Sequence record: MF327008
Origin: Shigella phage Sf24
Reading direction: 5' to 3' (one strand)
Length of the DNA stretch: 64,000 bases
Part shown: positions 1,665 through 60,774 of the stretch, in pieces
Position numbering within the stretch: position 1 is the first letter of the stretch
Layout of the letters: every line of letters begins with the position of its first letter
Made by a program: the position numbers and the translations under genes
Notes under the pieces: model-generated
Seen by the model: only the letters and a program-made list of their open reading frames with translations
Databases searched by the model: none
Told to the model about the DNA's origin: nothing

Positions 1665-1981
1665 AAGTCCTCAACTTGAAAATCGTCTTTAAACAATCGG
1701 TTAACTATATGAGCTATTATATCACCATGACACGGCTTTGGTTTACATGTGCATCCTAGCCTCATTCCACGTAAAGGCTCTAAATGTGCTTTAGTTATTT
1801 CTCCGGATTTAATTCGACGTATAAAATCTTTTTTGAATAATTCAATGGCAGCCTCCCGGCTGCCAGCATCTTTACCGACGTAATTTCCCCAAAATGTACC
1901 GCGGTGAATATTAACATCAAAGTCGGATTTGTATTTATTCACTACCCGGCATAGACGGCCCACGCTGGAATAATTCGTCAT
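1655..1981 (-). CDS. Hypothetical protein, 108 aa, Cys/His motif [12 protein letters not shown] (DUF4326-like)
   Basis: ORF track; overlaps nrdA start by 10 nt; position corresponds to T4 nrdA.x small ORFs. Confidence 0.55.
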
Positions 1982-13565: not shown

Positions 13566-14681
13566 ATGGAAAAATTTATGGCAGAGTTTGGACAAGGATA
13601 TGTCCAAACGCCATTTTTATCGGAAAGCAATTCAGTAAGATATAAAATAAGTATAGCGGGTTCTTGCCCGCTTTCTACTGCAGGGCCTTATGTTAAATTT
13701 CAAGATAATCCTATTGGAAGTCAAACATTTAATGCAGGTCTTCATTTGAGAGTTTTTGATCCTACATCAGGAGCGTTAGTCGATAGTAAATCATACGCAT
13801 TTTCATCATCTAACGATACGACATCATCTGCTTTTATTGATTTTATGAATTCTATTTCATCTAATAGAATAGTTGCTATATTAACAAGTGGAAAAGTTAA
13901 TTTCCCTCCTGAAGTAGTTTCTTGGTTAAGAACAGCAGGAACATCTGCTTTTCCATCTGATGCTATATTATCTAGATTTGATGTTTCATACGCAGCTTTT
14001 TACACTTCAGTAAAACGGGCAATCGCGTTAGAACACGTTAAATTAAGTAATAGAAAAAGCACAGATGATTATCAAACTATACTAGATGTAGTATTTGATA
14101 GCATAGAAGATGTTGGAGCAACAGGTTTTCCAAAAAGAACTTATGAAAGCGTTGAACAATTTATGTCAGCAGTTGGTGGAACAAATAATGAAATAGCGCG
14201 TTTACCTACTTCAGCTGCAATAAGTAAACTTTCTGACTACAATTTAATTCCTGGCGATGTTCTTTATCTTAAAGCACAGTTATACGCTGACGCAGATTTA
14301 TTAGCGTTAGGAACTACTAATATTTCAATTCGTTTTTATAACTCATCAAACGGATATATTTCTTCAACCCAAGCTGAATTTACAGGACAGGCTGGATCTT
14401 GGGAATTAAAAGAGGATTATGTGGTTGTTCCAGAAAATGCAGTTGGATTTACGATATATGCACAGAGAACTGCTCAAGCAGGACAAGGCGGCATGCGAAA
14501 TTTAAGCTTTTCTGAAGTATCAAGAAATGGTGGAATTTCAAAACCCGCCGAGTTTGGTGTTAATGGTATTAGAGTTAATTATGTCTGTGAATCTGCTTCA
14601 CCTCCTGATATAATGGTACTTCCAACACAATCGTCTACAAATACTGGAAAAGTTTTTGGACAAGAATTTAGAGAAGTTTAA
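13566..14681 (+). CDS. 35: Tail fibre hinge protein gp35, 371 aa
   Basis: ORF track; synteny and size. Confidence 0.85.
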   Translation: MEKFMAEFGQGYVQTPFLSESNSVRYKISIAGSCPLSTAGPYVKFQDNPIGSQTFNAGLHLRVFDPTSGALVDSKSYAFSSSNDTTSSAFIDFMNSISSNRIVAILTSGKVNFPPEVVSWLRTAGTSAFPSDAILSRFDVSYAAFYTSVKRAIALEHVKLSNRKSTDDYQTILDVVFDSIEDVGATGFPKRTYESVEQFMSAVGGTNNEIARLPTSAAISKLSDYNLIPGDVLYLKAQLYADADLLALGTTNISIRFYNSSNGYISSTQAEFTGQAGSWELKEDYVVVPENAVGFTIYAQRTAQAGQGGMRNLSFSEVSRNGGISKPAEFGVNGIRVNYVCESASPPDIMVLPTQSSTNTGKVFGQEFREV

Positions 14682-15417: not shown

Positions 15418-18400
15418 ATGGCTACTTTAAAACAAATACAATTTAAAAGAAGCAAAACTGCAGGTCAACGCCCTGCTGCTTCAGTATTAGCCGAAGGTGA
15501 ATTGGCTATAAACTTAAAAGACCGTACTCTTTTTACTAAAGATGACTCGGGAAATATTATTGATTTAAGCATTTCTGCCGGTGGTAACATTAGTGGAAAT
15601 ATTACTCAAAATGGTGATTATTTACAAAACGGCACGTATAATCTTAATGGAAATCAGTTTGTTTATGCAGGAAAGTATATTGAATTCTTGCCAAAAACTG
15701 CTGGAAATGGTGCTTGGGCAAATCAGCACACAAATAAAGCTCCAATTTTCACCGATTTGAGTTCAACTACTTCAACTTCTGAATATCATCCGCTAATTAA
15801 ACAACGTTATAAAGATGGAACGTTTTCATTAGGGACTTTAGTTTCTGAAGGCTCAATGAAGATACACTATATCGATGAAACTGGCACTTCAAAATATTGG
15901 ACTTTCCGACGTGATGGTGGTTTTGTTGTTGATAGTGGTAGTTTAACTGTTACTGCTGGAAACATATCTGCTTCAGGCAATATTAATTCGGCATCAGGGG
16001 TTGTTTCAGCTCCTCAAATTAATACAAAAACCATTGTTTTAGATACAAAAGCATTTGGACAATATGATTCGCAGTCATTAGTTCAGTATGTTTATCCTGG
16101 CACAGGTGAAACAAACGGTATAAACTATCTTCGTAAAGTTCGCGCAAAATCAGGTGGTACAATTTATCATGAAATAGCTTCAGCTCAAACTGGAAAAAGC
16201 GATGAAATTTCGTGGTGGACTGGAAATACAGCCGTTAATAAACAAATGGGTCTTCGTAATGATGGTGCAATGGTATTACGTCGTTCACTTGCTATTGGCA
16301 CAATTACTACAGATGAAAACGTAAATAACTATGGATCTGCTGGAGCAATGGGAGAAAAATACATTGTTCTTGGAGATGCGTCAACTGGACTAGCTTATAA
16401 AAAGACAGGAGTTTATGACTTAGTTGGTAGTGGTTTATCTGTTGCTTCTATCACTCCCGACAGTTTCCGTAGTACGCGTAAAGCAATTTTTGGACGTTCT
16501 GAAGACCAAGGCGGTACATGGCTTCTTCCTGGTCAAAACGCTGCTCTTCTTTCAGTTCGTACAGATATTGATCAAAATAATAACGGTGATGGTCAAACTC
16601 ATATTGGATATAATAGTAACAGCAAGTTTTATCATTATTTTAGAGGCAGAGGCCGAATGGCTGTTGGAATGGCTGAAGGTCTTATTGTTGAGCCTGGAAT
16701 TTTAGATATTAAAACTGGTTCAAATACTGTTTCTATTAGAGCTGATGGCGGAATTTCATCTACTCAGCGTCTTTCATTGCAGAATGGTATATTTTTATCT
16801 TCTGATGGAAATAACAACGGTATATCGTTTAAAGCTTCTAGCAGTATAGATGGAACTAAAACTCTTAATTGGGATGCTGGTACTCGTGCAGGTCAAAACA
16901 AAAATACAGTAATTTTAAAAGCATGGGGAAATTCATTTAATACAAGTGGTGGAACTGATAGACATACTGTATTTGAAGTTTCTGATTCACAAGGATACTA
17001 CTTTTATGCTCAACGTACTACCCCTGCATCCGGTCAAACAGTAGGTCCTATTAATTTTAAATTTAATGGTACTGTAGAAACCGGTCATATCAATGGATTA
17101 GGTAATATTACTTTATCTGGGGCAGTTATAGCAGATTCTGCTAATATTAAAGGACCGCTAAAAATATCTAATGCTAATACAGCTGATGCTTTTAGAATAT
17201 GGAACGCTGAATATGGAGCCATTTTCCGTCGTTCAGAAACATCATTGCATATTATTCCTACACTTAAAGATGCAGGGGAAAATGGTGGAATAAGTAATCT
17301 TCGCCCATTAAGTATTGATCTTTCAAACGGATTTGTGCAAATGCATCATTCTCTTTCTGTGGGGAATACAGTAAGAACGAATGGATTGTTTGCTGTGGAT
17401 ACTTCAGCTGCTCTTGTTGCAATTAACAGTCACTCTCGTGTTAATGCTAATTTCAGAATGCAATTAGGACAATCATCTTATATTGATGCTGAATGTACTG
17501 ACGCTGTGCGCCCTGCTGGAGCCGGTTCTTTTGCTTCGCAAAATAACGAAAACGTCCGTGCCCCATTCTATATGAATATAGATAGAACTGATACAAGCAC
17601 TTATGTTCCTATTGTGAAACAAAGATACGTGCAAAATAATAGTTGCTATTCTATTGGTACTTTAATTAATGGTGGTAACTTTAGAGTTCATTATCATGAA
17701 GGTGGCGATGGTAGTTCTACAGGCGTAGTTATAAAAGATTTAGGATGGGAATTTAATAAAAACGGTGATTTTTATTCTCCTGGTAAATTAGGCGCTGGAA
17801 ATATTAGAATAGGTACTGATGGTAATATCACGGGTGGTTCTGGTAACTTTGCTAACTTGAATACAACTTTAAACCGTAAAGTTAATTCTGGTTTTATTAC
17901 TTATGGAGCAACTGCAGGTTGGTACAAGTTTGCAACAGTAACAATGCCTCAAGCTACATCAACCGTTTCAATTACAGTCACTGGCGGAAATGGATTTAAT
18001 TCTGGATCATTTAATCAGTGCGCAATTTCTGAAATTGTTCTTCGTACAGGAAACAATAATCCTAAAGGATTAAATGCTGTTCTATATAGAAGAGGACTAA
18101 ATTCATTTAGAGATATTGCTTGGGTTAATACATCTGGTGATACATATGACATTTATGTTAATATGGGAACATATGCTAATCAGTTGATATTTAACTATAG
18201 TTCTGTTGATAATGCCACAGTTCAAATTATTGGCGCATTCAGTTCAGCTCAAAATCCTGTTGATGCATTGCCAGAAACATATGTTAAAGGTCAGGTAGCA
18301 GATGTATTGACTAACTTAGTTGATTCTGGAAAAACGAAGCGTTTTGTTGCTGAATCTGAAATAGCTATTAATAATCAAACTGGATTACGTATTACGAGTA

Positions 18401-20129: not shown

Positions 20130-20786
20130 ATGGCAGCACCTAGAATATCATTTTCGCCCTCTGATATTCTATTTGGTGTTCTAGATCGCTTGTTCAAAGA
20201 TAACGCTACCGGGAAAGTTCTTGCTTCCCGGGTAGCTGTCGTAATTCTTTTATTTATGATGGCGATTGTTTGGTATAGGGGAGATAGTTTCTTTGAGTAC
20301 TATAAGCAATCAAAGTATGAAACATACAGTGAAATTATTGAAAAGGAAAGAAATGCACGCTTTGAATCTGTCGCCCTGGAACAACTCCAGATAGTTCATA
20401 TATCATCTGAGGCAGACTTTAGTGCGGTGTATTCTTTCCGCCCTAAAAACTTAAACTATTTTGTTGATATTATAGCATACGAAGGAAGATTACCTTCAAC
20501 AATAACTGAAAAATCACTTGGAGGATATCCTGTTGATAAAACTATGGATGAATATATAGTTCATTTAAATGGACGTCATTATTATTCTGACTCAAAATTT
20601 GCTTTTTTACCAACTAAAAAGCCTACTCCCGAAATAAACTACATGTACAGTTGTCCATATTTTAATTTGGATAATATCTATGCTGGAACGATAACCATGT
20701 ACTGGTATAGAAATGATCATATAAGTAATGACCGCCTTGAATCAATATGCGCTCAGGCGGCCAGAATATTAGGAAGGGCTAAATAA
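20130..20786 (+). CDS. t: Holin T, 218 aa
   Basis: ORF track; matches T4 holin T in sequence and length as recalled; single N-terminal TM segment. Confidence 0.9.
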   Translation: MAAPRISFSPSDILFGVLDRLFKDNATGKVLASRVAVVILLFMMAIVWYRGDSFFEYYKQSKYETYSEIIEKERNARFESVALEQLQIVHISSEADFSAVYSFRPKNLNYFVDIIAYEGRLPSTITEKSLGGYPVDKTMDEYIVHLNGRHYYSDSKFAFLPTKKPTPEINYMYSCPYFNLDNIYAGTITMYWYRNDHISNDRLESICAQAARILGRAK

Positions 20787-28232: not shown

Positions 28233-28619
28233 AATTTTTCCTTAAAACAAAAGGGCCGAAGCCCCTTATTTTTATTTGAATTGTGCAATTCTTTTTTCTA
28301 AACAATCTGCGTAAGATTTCATTGAGATGAACTGTGAAAGCAGTAATTCTTGCTACTATAACATCATTGCAGTAAAGAAACCCAAGTTTTTCGTGACCAA
28401 ACTCAAATTTATTGCAATACACAATATTAGCGTGATGATTACCGTGCAGTTTAATCTCTTTTATGTCGGAATCACCGATATTCATACAATAAATCATAAT
28501 TTTTCCTTAAAACAAAAGGGCCGAAGCCCCTTATTTTTATTTGAATTGTGCAATTCTTTTTTCTAAACAATCTGCGTAAGATTTCATTGAGATGAACTGT
28601 GAAAGCAGTAATTCTTGCT
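28090..28619. repeat. Perfect tandem direct duplication, 2 x 265 bp (28090-28354 and 28355-28619)
   Basis: Base-for-base identical on reading the sequence; produces two ORFs with identical 48-aa N-termini. Confidence 0.85.
28207..28497 (-). pseudogene. Chimeric ORF created by the tandem duplication
   Basis: Starts at the duplicated start codon (28497 = 28232 + 265), crosses the repeat junction and terminates out of frame. Confidence 0.4.
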
Positions 28620-28731: not shown

Positions 28732-28760
28732 AATTTTCCTTAGTTAAGGGCCGAAGCCCC

Positions 28761-29699
28761 TTATTTAAATTGTTCAGTAACGTCTTCAACTACTTCGTAT
28801 TGGCAAGTACGCATTTTAGCATCGTTGTAATCAATCGGAATTGATACTACATCGCGAGGATGTACTTTAACTTTTACAACTCGGCTGGTTGAACTACCAA
28901 AGTGACGAATATAAGATTTAGAACACACATGCAGACCACGAGAACAAGTTTGTGTATCATCGTCATTCACACGAGTACGTGGCATTTTAACTACTTTACC
29001 AGGACTGTTATCAAAAGTATTTGAATGACAGTCAAAGTAATTACTACGAACTACTTTCCAAGCATAGAAGTAGCCATCTTCTGTAATTTCAATATCGTTT
29101 GCTACCAAGAAATCAAAGAGTCGAGATACCGCTTTTTGGCTCGGGTTTTCCAGCAGATTTTCCAAGAACGGAAAATAAAATTCAAAGTTTTCACCTTTTT
29201 CCATCGAATCGAGAATACGATCAACTAAACCAGACCGCAATTCAATATTTTGATAGAACAAGCTTCCACCTTCAATTCGAACATCACCGGAAATATATTT
29301 TTCAACAGCGCGACGAACGTTAATTTTTTGTGCTGCTTCTTCCAATTTATCTGCAACAAGCAGATTAAGAATTTCCTGGAAGTTTGAATGAGTATTAGGA
29401 GTTGCGTTATAAGTTACACCGTCAACAGTAATTGAAATGAATTTTTTAGATGCATTCCAAATAATGTCAGATTTAGCAACTGGAGCAATAACTGCATCGC
29501 TATTAACTTTAACTGTAATATCACCGCTAATAGTAACTTTAGGGCGTTTAGCTTCTTCAGCATTTTTCAAAACACGACGGATTGTGTCAACCGATACATC
29601 CTTCCAATAAGCCAATTCCTGTTGGGTGTAATTACCGCTTGAATACAGTTTAACAATTTCAGCTTGTTCGTTTTTGGTCAGGCATTTAATATTGTACAT
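28761..29699 (-). CDS. rIIB: rIIB protein, 312 aa
   Basis: ORF track; MYNIKCLTKNEQAEIVKLYSSGNYTQQELA... as recalled for T4 rIIB. Confidence 0.9.
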   Translation of the reverse strand: MYNIKCLTKNEQAEIVKLYSSGNYTQQELAYWKDVSVDTIRRVLKNAEEAKRPKVTISGDITVKVNSDAVIAPVAKSDIIWNASKKFISITVDGVTYNATPNTHSNFQEILNLLVADKLEEAAQKINVRRAVEKYISGDVRIEGGSLFYQNIELRSGLVDRILDSMEKGENFEFYFPFLENLLENPSQKAVSRLFDFLVANDIEITEDGYFYAWKVVRSNYFDCHSNTFDNSPGKVVKMPRTRVNDDDTQTCSRGLHVCSKSYIRHFGSSTSRVVKVKVHPRDVVSIPIDYNDAKMRTCQYEVVEDVTEQFK

Positions 29700-45697: not shown

Positions 45698-45907
45698 TTA
45701 AATTACATGATTATTTATAATAAATTCTCGCGGAACGTTAAAATACCCAATTTTAGTTAATATAACAATATCGCCGTTAATAATTACCGGAGAATAATCT
45801 TCTGGAGCATTAAATTTCCAATGGGCTCTAATATTATATCCATCAGAACCAAATGCTCGAGTAGCCGGTCTCCCGGCTTTTTGCCACGCGTAGAAATCAA
45901 ATTTCAT
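45698..45907 (-). CDS. Hypothetical protein, 69 aa
   Basis: ORF track; T4 soc.x position. Confidence 0.4.
   Translation of the reverse strand: MKFDFYAWQKAGRPATRAFGSDGYNIRAHWKFNAPEDYSPVIINGDIVILTKIGYFNVPREFIINNHVI
45712..45719 (-). promoter_or_regulatory. Late promoter core TATAAATA for soc
   Basis: Exact TATAAATA on the minus strand ~30 nt upstream of the soc ATG. Confidence 0.55.
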
Positions 45908-50989: not shown

Positions 50990-52417
50990 CTAAAATTTTA
51001 ATTCATTTGCCAAAGCATCTAACTGAGCTCGAGTAGATTCATTTCTTTGATAGCGATTCTGCTCAGCCTGAATCTGTTGTGAACCTGCTACTTCGTTCAC
51101 TTCAGTTGGAGTAGAATCTTGTTCAATTTCTACCCATTTCTGATTTCCTTTTTGAACACCCATCAAAAACTTATTCCATTTATTCTTATCGCCATATCGT
51201 GATTTGATTTGCTTAATGAGTTGTTGTTCAGCAGCTGCTAGCTCCTCGGTTTCAATGACCGCAAGCATAAAATCAGCTGTTGCTGGAAGACCAGCAGATT
51301 CTGCAATATCGCTCATGTTAACATCGGAAGAGTCCCAAGCTTGTTTACCAACCTGCGCTGCGGTCCAAAGAACAGTTTCGGTTTCAACAGCAAGAGCACG
51401 CAATTCCTCTGCAATAGCTTTAACAGTTGTGTAACTATTTTCTGAATAAACTCTAATGCGGCAAGATTTACAAATACCTAGATAGTCGACAATAATGATT
51501 GTTGGAACAAAATTCTTCTTGAGCTTCAATTCATTCAAGAGAGACCTGAATGTATTAGCGTCTGCTCCACCAGTAGGATATTGCTTAACGATTAAACGAC
51601 CGAGAGTAGATTTCTCACGCCATTTTTCCATTTTTCCTTTATATTCGGCGTAAGAAATATGTCCATCATCAATATCGTCAAGAGAAACATCGAGCATGTT
51701 AGCATCAATACGTTTAGCACAGACTTCTTCTGCCATTTCCATGGAGATATAAAGAACGTTATGACCAAGCTGCAAATAATCTGCTGCTAATGAGCAAAGT
51801 CCTAATGATTTACCAACGTTAACGCCAGCCATTAAAACGTTCAGTGTTCCTGTTTCAGCTCCGCCTTTTGTAATTTTATTCAAAATACGAAGTTTAAATG
51901 GAACCTTACGAGCTTTATTCATATAAGATAGCCAGCGTGCTTCGTAGTCATCCATCCAATCATGACCAACGTAGCTATCAAATGAAATTGATAATGCTTG
52001 GCGCATGATGTCAGGAATAGCACCTACATCTGGCATTTTCTTATTTCGTTTTTCCGGAGGAAGCTCAGCATTAGTTTGAATTTCGATTATTTTAGACGTA
52101 GCATTAAACATCGCCCTTTGCTGAACATATTTTTCTGTTTCTTTTACTAACCAACTATGGTCTTCCGGAGAATCAGCTAGTTTTGAAATAAGTGTTTTTA
52201 CACCAGAATATTCTGTTTCAGTAAATGAACTATTTTCTAATGCAACATTTAACGCATTAATAGATGGAACGCTATGATACTCATTAACATGAGATTTAAT
52301 TAATTTGAATGTATTTTTAGCTGGACCACTTTCAAAATATTCTGAATCCATATATGGCCAAACTTTTGAAAAATAAGCTTGATCAAATATGAGATGAGAA
52401 AGAATAATTTCTACCAC
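50990..52417 (-). CDS. 41: Replicative DNA helicase gp41 (DnaB-like), 475 aa
   Basis: ORF track; Walker A GVNVGKS; length as T4 gp41. Confidence 0.9.
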   Translation of the reverse strand: MVEIILSHLIFDQAYFSKVWPYMDSEYFESGPAKNTFKLIKSHVNEYHSVPSINALNVALENSSFTETEYSGVKTLISKLADSPEDHSWLVKETEKYVQQRAMFNATSKIIEIQTNAELPPEKRNKKMPDVGAIPDIMRQALSISFDSYVGHDWMDDYEARWLSYMNKARKVPFKLRILNKITKGGAETGTLNVLMAGVNVGKSLGLCSLAADYLQLGHNVLYISMEMAEEVCAKRIDANMLDVSLDDIDDGHISYAEYKGKMEKWREKSTLGRLIVKQYPTGGADANTFRSLLNELKLKKNFVPTIIIVDYLGICKSCRIRVYSENSYTTVKAIAEELRALAVETETVLWTAAQVGKQAWDSSDVNMSDIAESAGLPATADFMLAVIETEELAAAEQQLIKQIKSRYGDKNKWNKFLMGVQKGNQKWVEIEQDSTPTEVNEVAGSQQIQAEQNRYQRNESTRAQLDALANELKF

Positions 52418-52426
52418 ACTTACTCC

Positions 52427-52783
52427 TTAAAAGAATTTAAATTTTTTCTTTGACCTTTTATTAAATGCATCTTGCAGTTGCATTGTAATACATTTTTCTA
52501 CATGAGGAGCTAACTCAGCTTTTCTTTCTTGGTCAAGAACAGCAAAGTCCATTACAACCTTTCCATCAACCCAATCCAGTTTAGTTACATACACTATATG
52601 TGTAGAACCATCTTCTAGTTTAATGACAATCTCCTGGATAACATTTTCCATAGCGGATTTAATTATCTTAAGAGACTCATTAAAAAGACGTTCTTTTCTT
52701 TCTTTTTCCCCCTCCGAAGAGGGGGATTCATCGATAATTTCTAAATCTAAATCATCTTTACTCATTAAATTCTTCCATATCAC
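52427..52783 (-). CDS. 40: gp40-like head assembly protein, 118 aa
   Basis: ORF track; assigned by position between 41 and uvsX and by size. Confidence 0.55.
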   Translation of the reverse strand: MIWKNLMSKDDLDLEIIDESPSSEGEKERKERLFNESLKIIKSAMENVIQEIVIKLEDGSTHIVYVTKLDWVDGKVVMDFAVLDQERKAELAPHVEKCITMQLQDAFNKRSKKKFKFF

Positions 52784-53939
52784 TTAACTGCTCGAGGTCA
52801 GTTTCTAAATCAGCTGCTGATTTACTTTTACTTTCTGGAGATTTAAATTTTTCAACCTTTGAGTTAATCAATTCATCAACTTCAGCTTCAACAATTTCAT
52901 TACTATCAATAGCACCTAACTGATAAGCACGTTTAATAGCATCTCGGAATGGCTGATGCTTAAATAAAGGACCCCAGAATGTAGTGCAGTTGGTATCTTT
53001 TGCACGCCAAGATTTTTCTTCGCGAATCATCTCACCGGTTTCTTCGTCAAGAAATTCACGAGCATACCAGCCATTTTTAGGTTTTACCACAAATCCTAAT
53101 TCAAGAGCCATATCTAACAATCCAGAATAAGGATCGATGCCACCGTCAAATTTAACATCAATAAAGAATTTACTTTTTTCTTTAACGGTACGAGATTTTT
53201 CTACATTTAGAACAAATTGATACCCCTGAAGATCAGAACCATCTTTAATCTGGCGCTTACCGATAATGAATACAGTATCAGCCGAATACATTACGCCTGT
53301 ACCACCTGTCATCACGGTTTTACTAAACATTTCAATTGTTTCAATTGTATGGTTAACCGCAACACATGGAATATTTTTAATGCTAAAGTAAGGAGTAACA
53401 ATACGGAATAATGACTTCAGTGATTTAGCACGAGTCATATCTGCCACAGATTTTTCATTCAAGGCATCTTCAGTTTCTTTCTTAGAAGCCATATTACCGA
53501 TTGAGTCGATGAATACAATAACTTTTTCACCGCGCTCAATAGCTTCAAGCTGATTCACCATATCAATTTTTAGCTGTTCAACTGACTGAATCGGCGTATG
53601 AATTACTCGTTCTGGGTCAACCCCCATGGATCGCAAATAAGCTGGAGTAATACCAAATTCGCTATCATAGAATAGACAAACCGCGTCAGGATATTTGTTC
53701 AAATATGCCGCAACCATAGTCAAAGACATATTTGATTTAAAGTGTTTAGAAGGCCCTGCGAAAATAGTTAAACCAGACTGCATACCGCCATCAATCGCAC
53801 CAGAAATAGCAATATTAAGCATTGGAATTTTTGTACGAATTACATCCTTTTCATTAAAGAATTTAGATGTAGTCAGTTCAGCAGTCATTTTAGAAGTGGA
53901 AGCTTTAATCAAACGGGATTTTAAATCTGCAATAGACAT
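52758..53939 (-). CDS. uvsX: UvsX recombinase (RecA-like), 393 aa
   Basis: ORF track; Walker A GPSKHFKS; C-terminal half as recalled for T4 UvsX. Confidence 0.9.
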   Translation of the reverse strand: MSIADLKSRLIKASTSKMTAELTTSKFFNEKDVIRTKIPMLNIAISGAIDGGMQSGLTIFAGPSKHFKSNMSLTMVAAYLNKYPDAVCLFYDSEFGITPAYLRSMGVDPERVIHTPIQSVEQLKIDMVNQLEAIERGEKVIVFIDSIGNMASKKETEDALNEKSVADMTRAKSLKSLFRIVTPYFSIKNIPCVAVNHTIETIEMFSKTVMTGGTGVMYSADTVFIIGKRQIKDGSDLQGYQFVLNVEKSRTVKEKSKFFIDVKFDGGIDPYSGLLDMALELGFVVKPKNGWYAREFLDEETGEMIREEKSWRAKDTNCTTFWGPLFKHQPFRDAIKRAYQLGAIDSNEIVEAEVDELINSKVEKFKSPESKSKSAADLETDLEQLSDMEEFNE

Positions 53940-54016: not shown

Positions 54017-54865
54017 TTAATCAACTGCTATTGGATGAATAACATTAAACTTATGAAATGCTTCTGATTTTTCTTTACGTGAAACGCACATGCGAAGAAC
54101 CTTTAATGGTTCGTCTTCTTCACCCAACGATTTTCGTTTTTCAATATTAGAAGTTTTCCAACGAGCTTGCTCTGGAAACTCTCTATTGATTTGCTCAAGC
54201 GCTCTATTATGTTTAGAATTACTACGAATTGAACTGCACCCGCCAGGAGCTTGTGCTTTTCCAGATACAACCAGATATTTGAACAAGGCCAAATGCGGAT
54301 AACCTTGATTAATTAAATTGAGAAATGCATACATATCTTCGCACAAATCAATTTTTCCATACCCAATTTGTTCTGTCGTAAGTTTTCCAAGGTCATACCA
54401 TGTATTCGTGAATCCATATGAATTTTCACGATAATTACCCCAAGATGAAGTAATTTTAAAAATTGGTAGGCGAGCATGACCATGATAATACCCGCAATCC
54501 ATGGCATCCTCAACGTATTGAATCAATTCATAGAACTGTTCACGGGTTAATTGATTAATTTTATCTACGCAGCGACGATCATCTTTCTTTCGCATTGAGC
54601 TCATACGAATAGTAGTATCATCGTCAATCATCCAGATTCGTTGACCTGCATACATATCAGTAATTGCTTTACGAGTACCGGCAATTCCGTTTACATCATC
54701 AGGAATAGTTATAATTTTAGCTCTAGACCCATAGGCATCATAATAAGCTTTTTCTTCATGTTCACGCACTACAATATGGGGTTCATAATCAGTCGGAAAC
54801 ATATCAAGGGCAGAAACTGCCCCGACACGCTGATAACTTGGAATTACGAATTGAATCATTTCCAC
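54017..54865 (-). CDS. Putative glycosyltransferase (DxD motif), 282 aa, at the beta-gt locus
   Basis: ORF track; WMIDDDTTI acidic motif typical of GT-A enzymes; not the T4 beta-glucosyltransferase sequence I recall. Confidence 0.5.
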   Translation of the reverse strand: MEMIQFVIPSYQRVGAVSALDMFPTDYEPHIVVREHEEKAYYDAYGSRAKIITIPDDVNGIAGTRKAITDMYAGQRIWMIDDDTTIRMSSMRKKDDRRCVDKINQLTREQFYELIQYVEDAMDCGYYHGHARLPIFKITSSWGNYRENSYGFTNTWYDLGKLTTEQIGYGKIDLCEDMYAFLNLINQGYPHLALFKYLVVSGKAQAPGGCSSIRSNSKHNRALEQINREFPEQARWKTSNIEKRKSLGEEDEPLKVLRMCVSRKEKSEAFHKFNVIHPIAVD

Positions 54866-60210: not shown

Positions 60211-60774
60211 TTACCATTCCAATGCTAGTTTTTTGAGTTGTTTCTGTTCTTTTACGTTCTTAGTCACTTCTTTCAAAAAATCATCCGTGACTAATCCTTT
60301 AAGTTCTTTTAATACTAAAGGTAGTTTTCCATTTTTAGTAAGAATTGATTTATAGTTAATTGCATCATTTGTATTAACTTGATACCGCTTAGCAAGTAAC
60401 TTAATAATCAATACTTCGGTGGAATCTTCGACCAGTTTTGCCCATTTACCATATCTTTTACCCCGAGGAACTGCAGCCATCAGATAATTAAAATGAGCTT
60501 CATCACTTAAGCCTGATCCAATTAAATTCATAGCATATACAGCTGGCATGCACTCTGGAAATTGTGATAATGCATTTTCAACCATGAATTTTGAATAATC
60601 TTTTTGAGCAATAGAGCATTTAGTTTTATTATTAATAGCTCCAATTATTTCAAAAAATTCATTTTCAGCTTTTTCTTTAAAAGAATCAGCAGCAGATTGG
60701 ACAGCTGTCCAATCTTTTGAATACCAAGCAACTTGATGCTCGTTTAATTGAATATCATCTTCAAATAAGCTCAT
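60211..60774 (-). CDS. 62: Clamp loader small subunit gp62, 187 aa
   Basis: ORF track ORF 60211..60795; start taken at MSLFEDD as in T4 gp62. Confidence 0.85.

Follow-up and report, generated by a model that had tools for sequence, protein, structure and literature searches.

A C(UUCG)G hairpin within gene 40 of Shigella phage Sf24 belongs to the 3' end of uvsX and is a candidate boundary element of the uvsX message

In Shigella phage Sf24, a very stable RNA hairpin is written into the coding sequence of gene 40, and the locus raises the question of why such a structure lies inside a gene and which of the neighboring genes it serves. The DNA analyzed here (the window; 64,000 nucleotides of record MF327008) is that of a T4-type phage, Tequatrovirus, and across region 52300-53000 it matches Shigella phage Sf25 at 100% identity and T4 at about 98%. 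Three genes are concerned, all on the minus strand. uvsX (52758..53939) encodes a RecA-like recombinase of 393 aa, identified from the open reading frame (ORF) list and the annotation in Sf25 and T4; gene 40 (52427..52765) encodes a head vertex assembly chaperone of 112 aa, counted from the ATG at 52765; and gene 41 (50990..52417), the downstream cistron, encodes the replicative helicase from a GTG start. The last 8 nt of uvsX are shared with gene 40. The hairpin (52707..52726, minus strand) begins 32 nt past the uvsX stop codon, which ends 31 nt ahead of it, and corresponds to gp40 codons 15-21. Directly 3' of the stem is a purine-rich tail without a U-run, AAAAAGAAAGAAAAGAA (52690..52706, minus strand). 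No regulatory feature is annotated at the uvsX/gene 40 site in the GenBank and RefSeq records of T4.

A preliminary description of this DNA had placed an extremely stable, GC-rich 8-bp stem with a UUCG loop at 52707-52726 and had read the sequence in frame as SPSSEGE; coordinates, sequence, and reading proved exact. The minus strand from 52726 to 52707 is TCCCCCTCTTCGGAGGGGGA, or as RNA UCCCCCUC-UUCG-GAGGGGGA, and a repeat search returned 8-nt arms, 100% complementary and 4 nt apart, which form a perfect 8-bp stem. The folding energy of the 20-mer is -15.9 kcal/mol, and the same hairpin was recovered in a 120-nt context, bearing out the stability that had been claimed. With its UUCG loop and closing C-G pair on a Watson-Crick stem, the structure is a C(UUCG)G tetraloop hairpin. 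The codons are TCC CCC TCT TCG GAG GGG GAA, and 14/20 bases are G or C (70%, versus 35% for the window), as the remark on composition had implied. A search of Rfam over 52300-53100 at E <= 1 gave as its sole match an 11-bit chance one (E = 0.87), and over the whole window nothing reached the gathering score.

Hairpins of this strength are rare in coding sequence, with only 5 at -15 kcal/mol or below in the 56.8 kb of sense coding sequence of the window. The CTTCGG hexamer occurs 32 times in the window against 12.9 expected. C(UUCG)G hairpins with a stem of at least 5 bp number 11, of which 9 are intergenic, in agreement with the earlier remark that such hairpins are normally intercistronic in this genome. 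One other (28250) lies within an ORF, a doubtful one of 96 aa, and the hairpin at 52707-52726 is the only one of the 11 inside a well-supported coding sequence. Intercistronic C(UUCG)G hairpins of T4 were reportedly described by Tuerk et al. in 1988 (PNAS 85:1364). The gene 40 hairpin shares with that group the loop, the closing C-G pair, and a G/C-rich stem in an A/T-rich genome (summarized in PMC4371310), as well as placement a short distance past a stop codon, and about 10 such hairpins occur in the window. Unlike them, it is translated within the next gene, with no spacer.

Other hairpins of the window are recorded here in their own right. Three C(UUCG)G hairpins on the minus strand (28250-28267, 28515-28532, and 28746-28761) are spaced about 230-265 nt apart; the first two match exactly in both stem and 12-nt tail (AAGGGGCTTCGGCCCTTT TGTTTTAAGGAA), a pattern that suggests a duplicated small-gene cassette. 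Strong perfect hairpins also lie in ORFs at 1846-1865 (minus strand; TGGCAGCCGGGAGGCTGCCA, -15.9 kcal/mol) and at 20205-20236 (plus strand; GCTACCGGGAAAG...CTTCCCGGGTAGC, -16.9 kcal/mol).

The gene 40 hairpin is clearly under selection and more than a product of chance, because it is built from the rarest codons and few encodings of its peptide are as stable. Five of its seven codons rank among the least used in the window. Within their synonymous families there, TCC accounts for 4.3%, CCC for 2.8%, TCG for 5.6%, GAG for 14%, and GGG for 4.6%. SPSSEGE can be encoded in 13,824 synonymous ways; when these are weighted by codon usage, those that fold as stably hold only 1.9e-6 of the probability mass. 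The preliminary description had suggested that synonymous sites be compared in related phages, and this comparison came out in favor of the stem: between T4 and Gelderlandvirus/Karamvirus, synonymous differences occur at 46-55% of the conserved gene 40 codons outside the stem and at 0/5 of those inside it. The Mosigvirus stem carries exactly two synonymous changes, CCC>CCT and GAG>GAA, which fall at partner positions and together convert a C-G pair to U-A. The loop varies (UUCG, UUUG, UCAG, and UAAG, encoding S, L, Q, and K, respectively), and the stems remain paired.

It is accordingly highly improbable that the palindrome has no function as RNA and is a by-product of the gp40 peptide or acts at the level of DNA or of an antisense transcript. 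Such an origin would fit the invariance of P, S, E, G, and E in four Tevenvirinae gp40 proteins and the antisense strand, which folds almost equally well (-15.0 kcal/mol), but the codons chosen are the rarest ones (P = 2e-6), the stem is kept across genera and the peptide is not, and the region lies outside the Pfam domain of gp40. Several versions of the stem contain G-U pairs, which the opposite strand would render as C-A mismatches. In 14/20 hairpins, the sense strand is the more stable one (p = 0.058), by a weak and biased test whose hairpin boundaries were chosen on the sense strand. At 8 bp, the arms fall short of what a cruciform or RNase III requires. An RNase III site was rejected on that ground, and a DNA cruciform on that ground and on the use of G-U pairs by the homologues.

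The part of gp40 that carries the hairpin appears free to accommodate it. The stem lies in a tolerant extension of the protein, because the Pfam domain (PF11113) covers residues 42-97 only, leaving the hairpin codons outside, and the variable N terminus carries indels upstream of the hairpin that are all in frame. One of these is a 6-nt in-frame deletion relative to T4 (52735-52750, minus strand; one Asp-Leu repeat) just upstream of the hairpin. It accounts for the T4 hairpin beginning +38 nt from the uvsX stop rather than +32 as in Sf24; the hairpins themselves are identical (20/20). The first codon past the stem encodes Lys in Sf24 gp40 and Glu in T4.

To which gene the hairpin belongs was asked across Straboviridae. 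An IMG/VR search with gp40 returned 11 loci, and the sample was built from annotated phage records, genus by genus, to comprise 20 phages with a locatable uvsX. Within Tevenvirinae it covers Tequatro-, Mosig-, Gelderland-, Karam-, Gapriver-, Dhaka-, Mosuguk-, Teguna-, Kanagawa-, and Winklervirus; the other T4-like lineages are Marfavirus, Klebsiella phage Lion_ER11, Gualtarvirus, Krischvirus, JC221, Pseudotevenvirus RB43, a KVP40-like Vibrio phage, and Menderavirus. At every junction (20/20), the strongest local hairpin (-10.7 to -21 kcal/mol) begins 0 to +63 nt past the uvsX stop. In 14/20 phages, it lies within gene 40, 36-61 nt from the gene start, and uvsX and gene 40 overlap or abut there. 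In five (a Providencia phage, Skers, JC221, RB43, and Vibrio QD01), it occupies a spacer of 33-58 nt, and in the remaining one it falls in another overlapping ORF. In Sf24, the stem is intragenic because the 8-nt overlap leaves no spacer.

Both the stem sequence and the peptide that it encodes differ between genera, and the intragenic designs are unrelated to one another. The design CCCCCUC/GAGGGGG encodes PS.EG (SPSSEGE in Sf24), GCGGAGGGAGC/GCUCCUUCUGU encodes EGAKAPS, GAGGGUC/GACCCUC encodes EGPSDPR, GAGGCUCC/GGAGCUUC encodes EAPKGAS, and GGAAUCCUC/GAGGAUUCC encodes ESSDEDS (within EESSDEDSR). MAFFT aligned the hairpins by sequence and split versions of reversed polarity, and pairs were instead counted by position from the loop. 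These pair counts are biased by the choice of hairpin; the real test is the frequency of hairpins at this position against background. Hairpins of -10.7 kcal/mol or below occur at 0.65 per kb in the sense coding sequence of the window and at 1.05 per kb in the flanks of the sampled loci, and the coding background predicts about 0.05-0.07 per 72-nt target. ORF stops in the window are followed by such a hairpin in 26/91 cases. By our own arithmetic on these background rates, counting about 10 sequence-unrelated designs, presence in all of them has p ~4e-6 at the 26/91 (0.29) rate and p ~4e-12 at the coding-background rate.

Gene 40 also occurs downstream of genes other than uvsX. In the four such phages sampled (three Acinetobacter phages and Aeromonas AP1), the internal hairpin is absent from gene 40 (4/4), and the upstream genes have neither a PF21134 domain nor similarity to UvsX. 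The hairpin thus belongs to the 3' end of uvsX rather than to gp40, because it is kept with the uvsX stop and is absent from gene 40 elsewhere. This assignment was missed in the preliminary description, as was the prior description of the element in T4.

Two further observations concern the flanks of these loci. In Acinetobacter phages AbTZA1, Abraxas, and LemonAid, gene 40 is preceded by a gene annotated as an alpha-glucosyltransferase, and a C(UUCG)G stem lies in the spacer between genes 40 and 41, directly past the stop of gene 40 (706-741 in locus L022, 880-899 in L031, and 853-872 in L032). Pectobacterium phage PM2 (locus L018, about 811-837) and Escherichia phage VR26 (locus L020, about 813-841) have in common a hairpin, GAAAAGGGUCC-NNNNN-GACCCUUUUU, about 80 nt into gene 41, where it encodes E-K-G-P-A-K-T-L-F; judged from its sequence, it may be another conserved coding-embedded stem.

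The position of the hairpin also bears on translational pausing, one of the roles offered in the preliminary description. A translational element of gene 40 might slow early ribosomes or tune the coupling between uvsX and gene 40, with gp40 kept low before the late period. In T4, gp40 serves a late function, and its gene lies between two middle genes. That arrangement, the high stability of the stem, and its location 36-61 nt into gene 40 in 14 genomes would suit such an element. The offset of the hairpin from the gene 40 start varies from -51 to +61 nt, however, and its offset from the uvsX stop is conserved. In 5 genomes, the stem precedes the ribosome-binding site; it is also missing from gene 40 where the upstream gene is not uvsX, and it lies beyond the footprint of an initiating ribosome. 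A frameshift or pausing stimulator was rejected, as AAAUUAUCGAUGAA, upstream of the stem, contains no slippery X XXY YYZ heptamer. We therefore regard a translational role as improbable. A target for RegB was likewise set aside, the GGAG being buried in the stem.

The T4 gene 40 stem-loop and an in vivo RNA 3' end there are reportedly the subject of Hinton 1989 (J Biol Chem 264:14432 and 14440). Later work from the Hinton laboratory (Kim et al. 2025, PMC12152347) deals with the 358 nt upstream of T4 gene 41, called the '41 5'UR', which is essentially gene 40. According to the legend of its Fig. 5B, which cites Hinton 1989, an RNA 3' end is found in vivo immediately downstream of a stem-loop in this segment. 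The strongest stem-loop in the 358 nt is the C(UUCG)G hairpin (-15.9 kcal/mol; the runner-up, at -11.2 kcal/mol, is imperfect), and it is the only perfect one to reach -12 kcal/mol. Judging from the sequence and from that legend, the stem-loop boxed at the T4 3' end is very probably this hairpin. Gene and position are the same as in Sf24, and nothing material differs. The hairpin is almost certainly a known T4 feature that has already been described, and by homology an Sf24 RNA 3' end is expected in vivo within the tail at 52690..52706. The preliminary description held that a lack of transcript ends near the hairpin would speak against a role for it; in T4, an end is reported at this place (PMC12152347). 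Of the roles that it had offered, processing or 3'-end formation is thus supported by the T4 end, and translational pausing is disfavored by a hairpin that tracks the uvsX stop.

The same passages of PMC12152347, again citing Hinton 1989, state that more RNA ends at the '41 5'UR' site in rho(nusD) mutant hosts and that GoF(D25Y) restores RNA reaching into gene 41. In that text, the gene 41 mRNA level depends on RNA continuing beyond the stem-loop. The goF mutation was first interpreted as causing anti-termination (PMC2988021 and PMC12152347). The Hinton 2010 review (PMC2988021) now prefers a nuclease-protection model to anti-termination and notes that growth is also rescued by Rop; the 2025 text describes the action of GoF(D25Y) as post-transcriptional, with RNA half-life raised.

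These observations frame the main rival to an exonuclease barrier, namely a weak transcriptional attenuator in which pausing or termination at the hairpin, possibly influenced by Rho, halts some of the RNA polymerases directly past the stem and sets transcription into genes 40 and 41. The T4 3' end directly past the stem-loop and its altered abundance in rho(nusD) hosts would be expected of an attenuator, as would the first interpretation of goF. In three of the five phages with a spacer-located stem (Krischvirus Skers, Yersinia phage JC221, and Vibrio phage QD01), the stem is followed by a U-run and resembles an intrinsic terminator that is G/C-rich and has the same placement after the uvsX stop. 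Their sequences favor termination as at least an ancestral role, and an attenuator role at this site may be ancestral. Unlike these terminators, the Tequatrovirus stem has no U-run, its tail being AAAAAGAAAG, and a U-run is absent after the stem in all intragenic versions (14/14). Consensus scans near the site called no terminator and no promoter, and the late-promoter motif TATAAATA was not found near gene 40.

Published T4 RNA-seq gives a quantitative view of the junction. At 5 min, in the first condition, coverage in reads/nt is 46.0 over uvsX, 39.8 over gene 40, and 43.1 over gene 41 (PMC6024815 supplement). Across the six conditions at 5 min, gene 40/uvsX is 0.77-0.88 and gene 41/uvsX is 0.88-1.06, ratios that are our own divisions for a single time point at which other promoters may feed gene 41. 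Coverage therefore falls by at most 12-23% across the site. Thus, a truncated uvsX-proximal RNA is a minor species in the wild type at 5 min, and the near-flat coverage indicates that the stem is not an efficient terminator there. As a candidate intrinsic terminator, the site has the G/C-rich hairpin but neither a U-run (tail AAAAAGAAAGAA) nor a clear drop in downstream RNA. Given also the post-transcriptional mode of GoF(D25Y), we consider attenuation possible but considerably less likely than a barrier. Our literature search found no genome-wide mapping of T4 3' ends and no published test of whether the half-life of upstream mRNA depends on the stem.

On balance, we think it somewhat probable that the hairpin is a 3' boundary element of the uvsX message, a barrier to 3' exonucleases that leaves a stable mRNA end. 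This reading is preferred to an efficient terminator because the stem lacks a U-run, the RNA-seq coverage is flat, and the genetics of GoF are post-transcriptional. A stable stem-loop shortly past the uvsX stop, conserved with uvsX at 20/20 junctions, is what a barrier would look like. In the proposed mechanism, transcripts from upstream promoters would span uvsX-40-41. Once the 40-41 part is cut or decaying, host 3'->5' exonucleases would halt at the C(UUCG)G stem, which lies 32-51 nt beyond the uvsX stop, and the halted decay would leave uvsX mRNA translatable and its 3' end protected. Any RNA not caught by this decay would extend into gene 41. The stem would be encoded, through rare G/C-rich codons, in the non-domain N-terminal extension of gp40, and the benefit would be a level of uvsX mRNA uncoupled from that of gene 40-41 mRNA. 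We infer both the barrier mechanism and the uncoupling. Two considerations run counter to the barrier model: ribosomes on gene 40 would melt the stem, and ribosomes on RNA terminated at the stem would meet a non-stop end.

Intercistronic hairpins that stabilize mRNA and make operon expression unequal are familiar from the E. coli malE-malF REP and from Rhodobacter puf. By analogy, the uvsX hairpin may act as they do, being a stable stem-loop past the upstream cistron, with RNA ending at the stem and less protection expected further downstream. It differs from them in that the stem is embedded in coding sequence and its stabilizing role is predicted, and in that upstream and downstream RNA are nearly equal in T4 at 5 min.

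A similar layout occurs elsewhere in the window. A hairpin of -18.1 kcal/mol at 54799-54830 (minus strand; core GGGGCAG-UUU-CUGCCCU) lies 29 nt into a 282-aa gene (54017-54865, minus strand) that overlaps the end of gene 42 (dCMP hydroxymethylase), so that, as at uvsX/gene 40, a post-stop hairpin is carried by the next ORF. This gene encodes a single protein matching Pfam PF20691 (TET-associated glycosyltransferase), and segA is absent; the gene 42-uvsX interval of T4, unlike that of Sf24, holds segA and the beta-glucosyltransferase. Four further embedded post-stop hairpins, at 13579-13613 (plus strand), 15449-15482 (plus strand), 45855-45889 (minus strand), and 60694-60715 (minus strand), have energies of -11.9 to -16.1 kcal/mol and start 14-60 nt past an ORF stop, in the next abutting ORF. 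With ORF starts taken as crude longest-ATG calls, the window holds 6 embedded post-stop hairpins against roughly 3-4 expected, and no general rule is established.

What the comparison adds to the T4 work is that a stem is present past the uvsX stop in all sampled lineages, sometimes in the spacer and sometimes in the coding sequence that follows, and that it has been reinvented, with sequences that differ among genera, and imposes its amino acids on a permissive segment of gp40. The comparison thus appears to add to a known element and not to reveal a new kind. It illustrates cleanly how an RNA element can override both codon choice and peptide sequence. The '41 5'UR' was still in use in 2025 for studying the effects of GoF(D25Y) and rho mutations on gene 41 mRNA (PMC12152347), and the comparison argues that the GoF/Rho/gene 41 phenotype is better analyzed as a problem of the uvsX 3' end. 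A bolder proposal, which we consider unlikely, is that the post-uvsX stem, instead of being a passive barrier, is a regulated checkpoint across Straboviridae that dictates the mirror-image E-G and P-S peptides of gp40 and serves as a cis-target through which the LSm-like GoF family or host Rho decides the survival of RNA into gene 41. If this were true, the checkpoint would set the ratio of recombinase to helicase.
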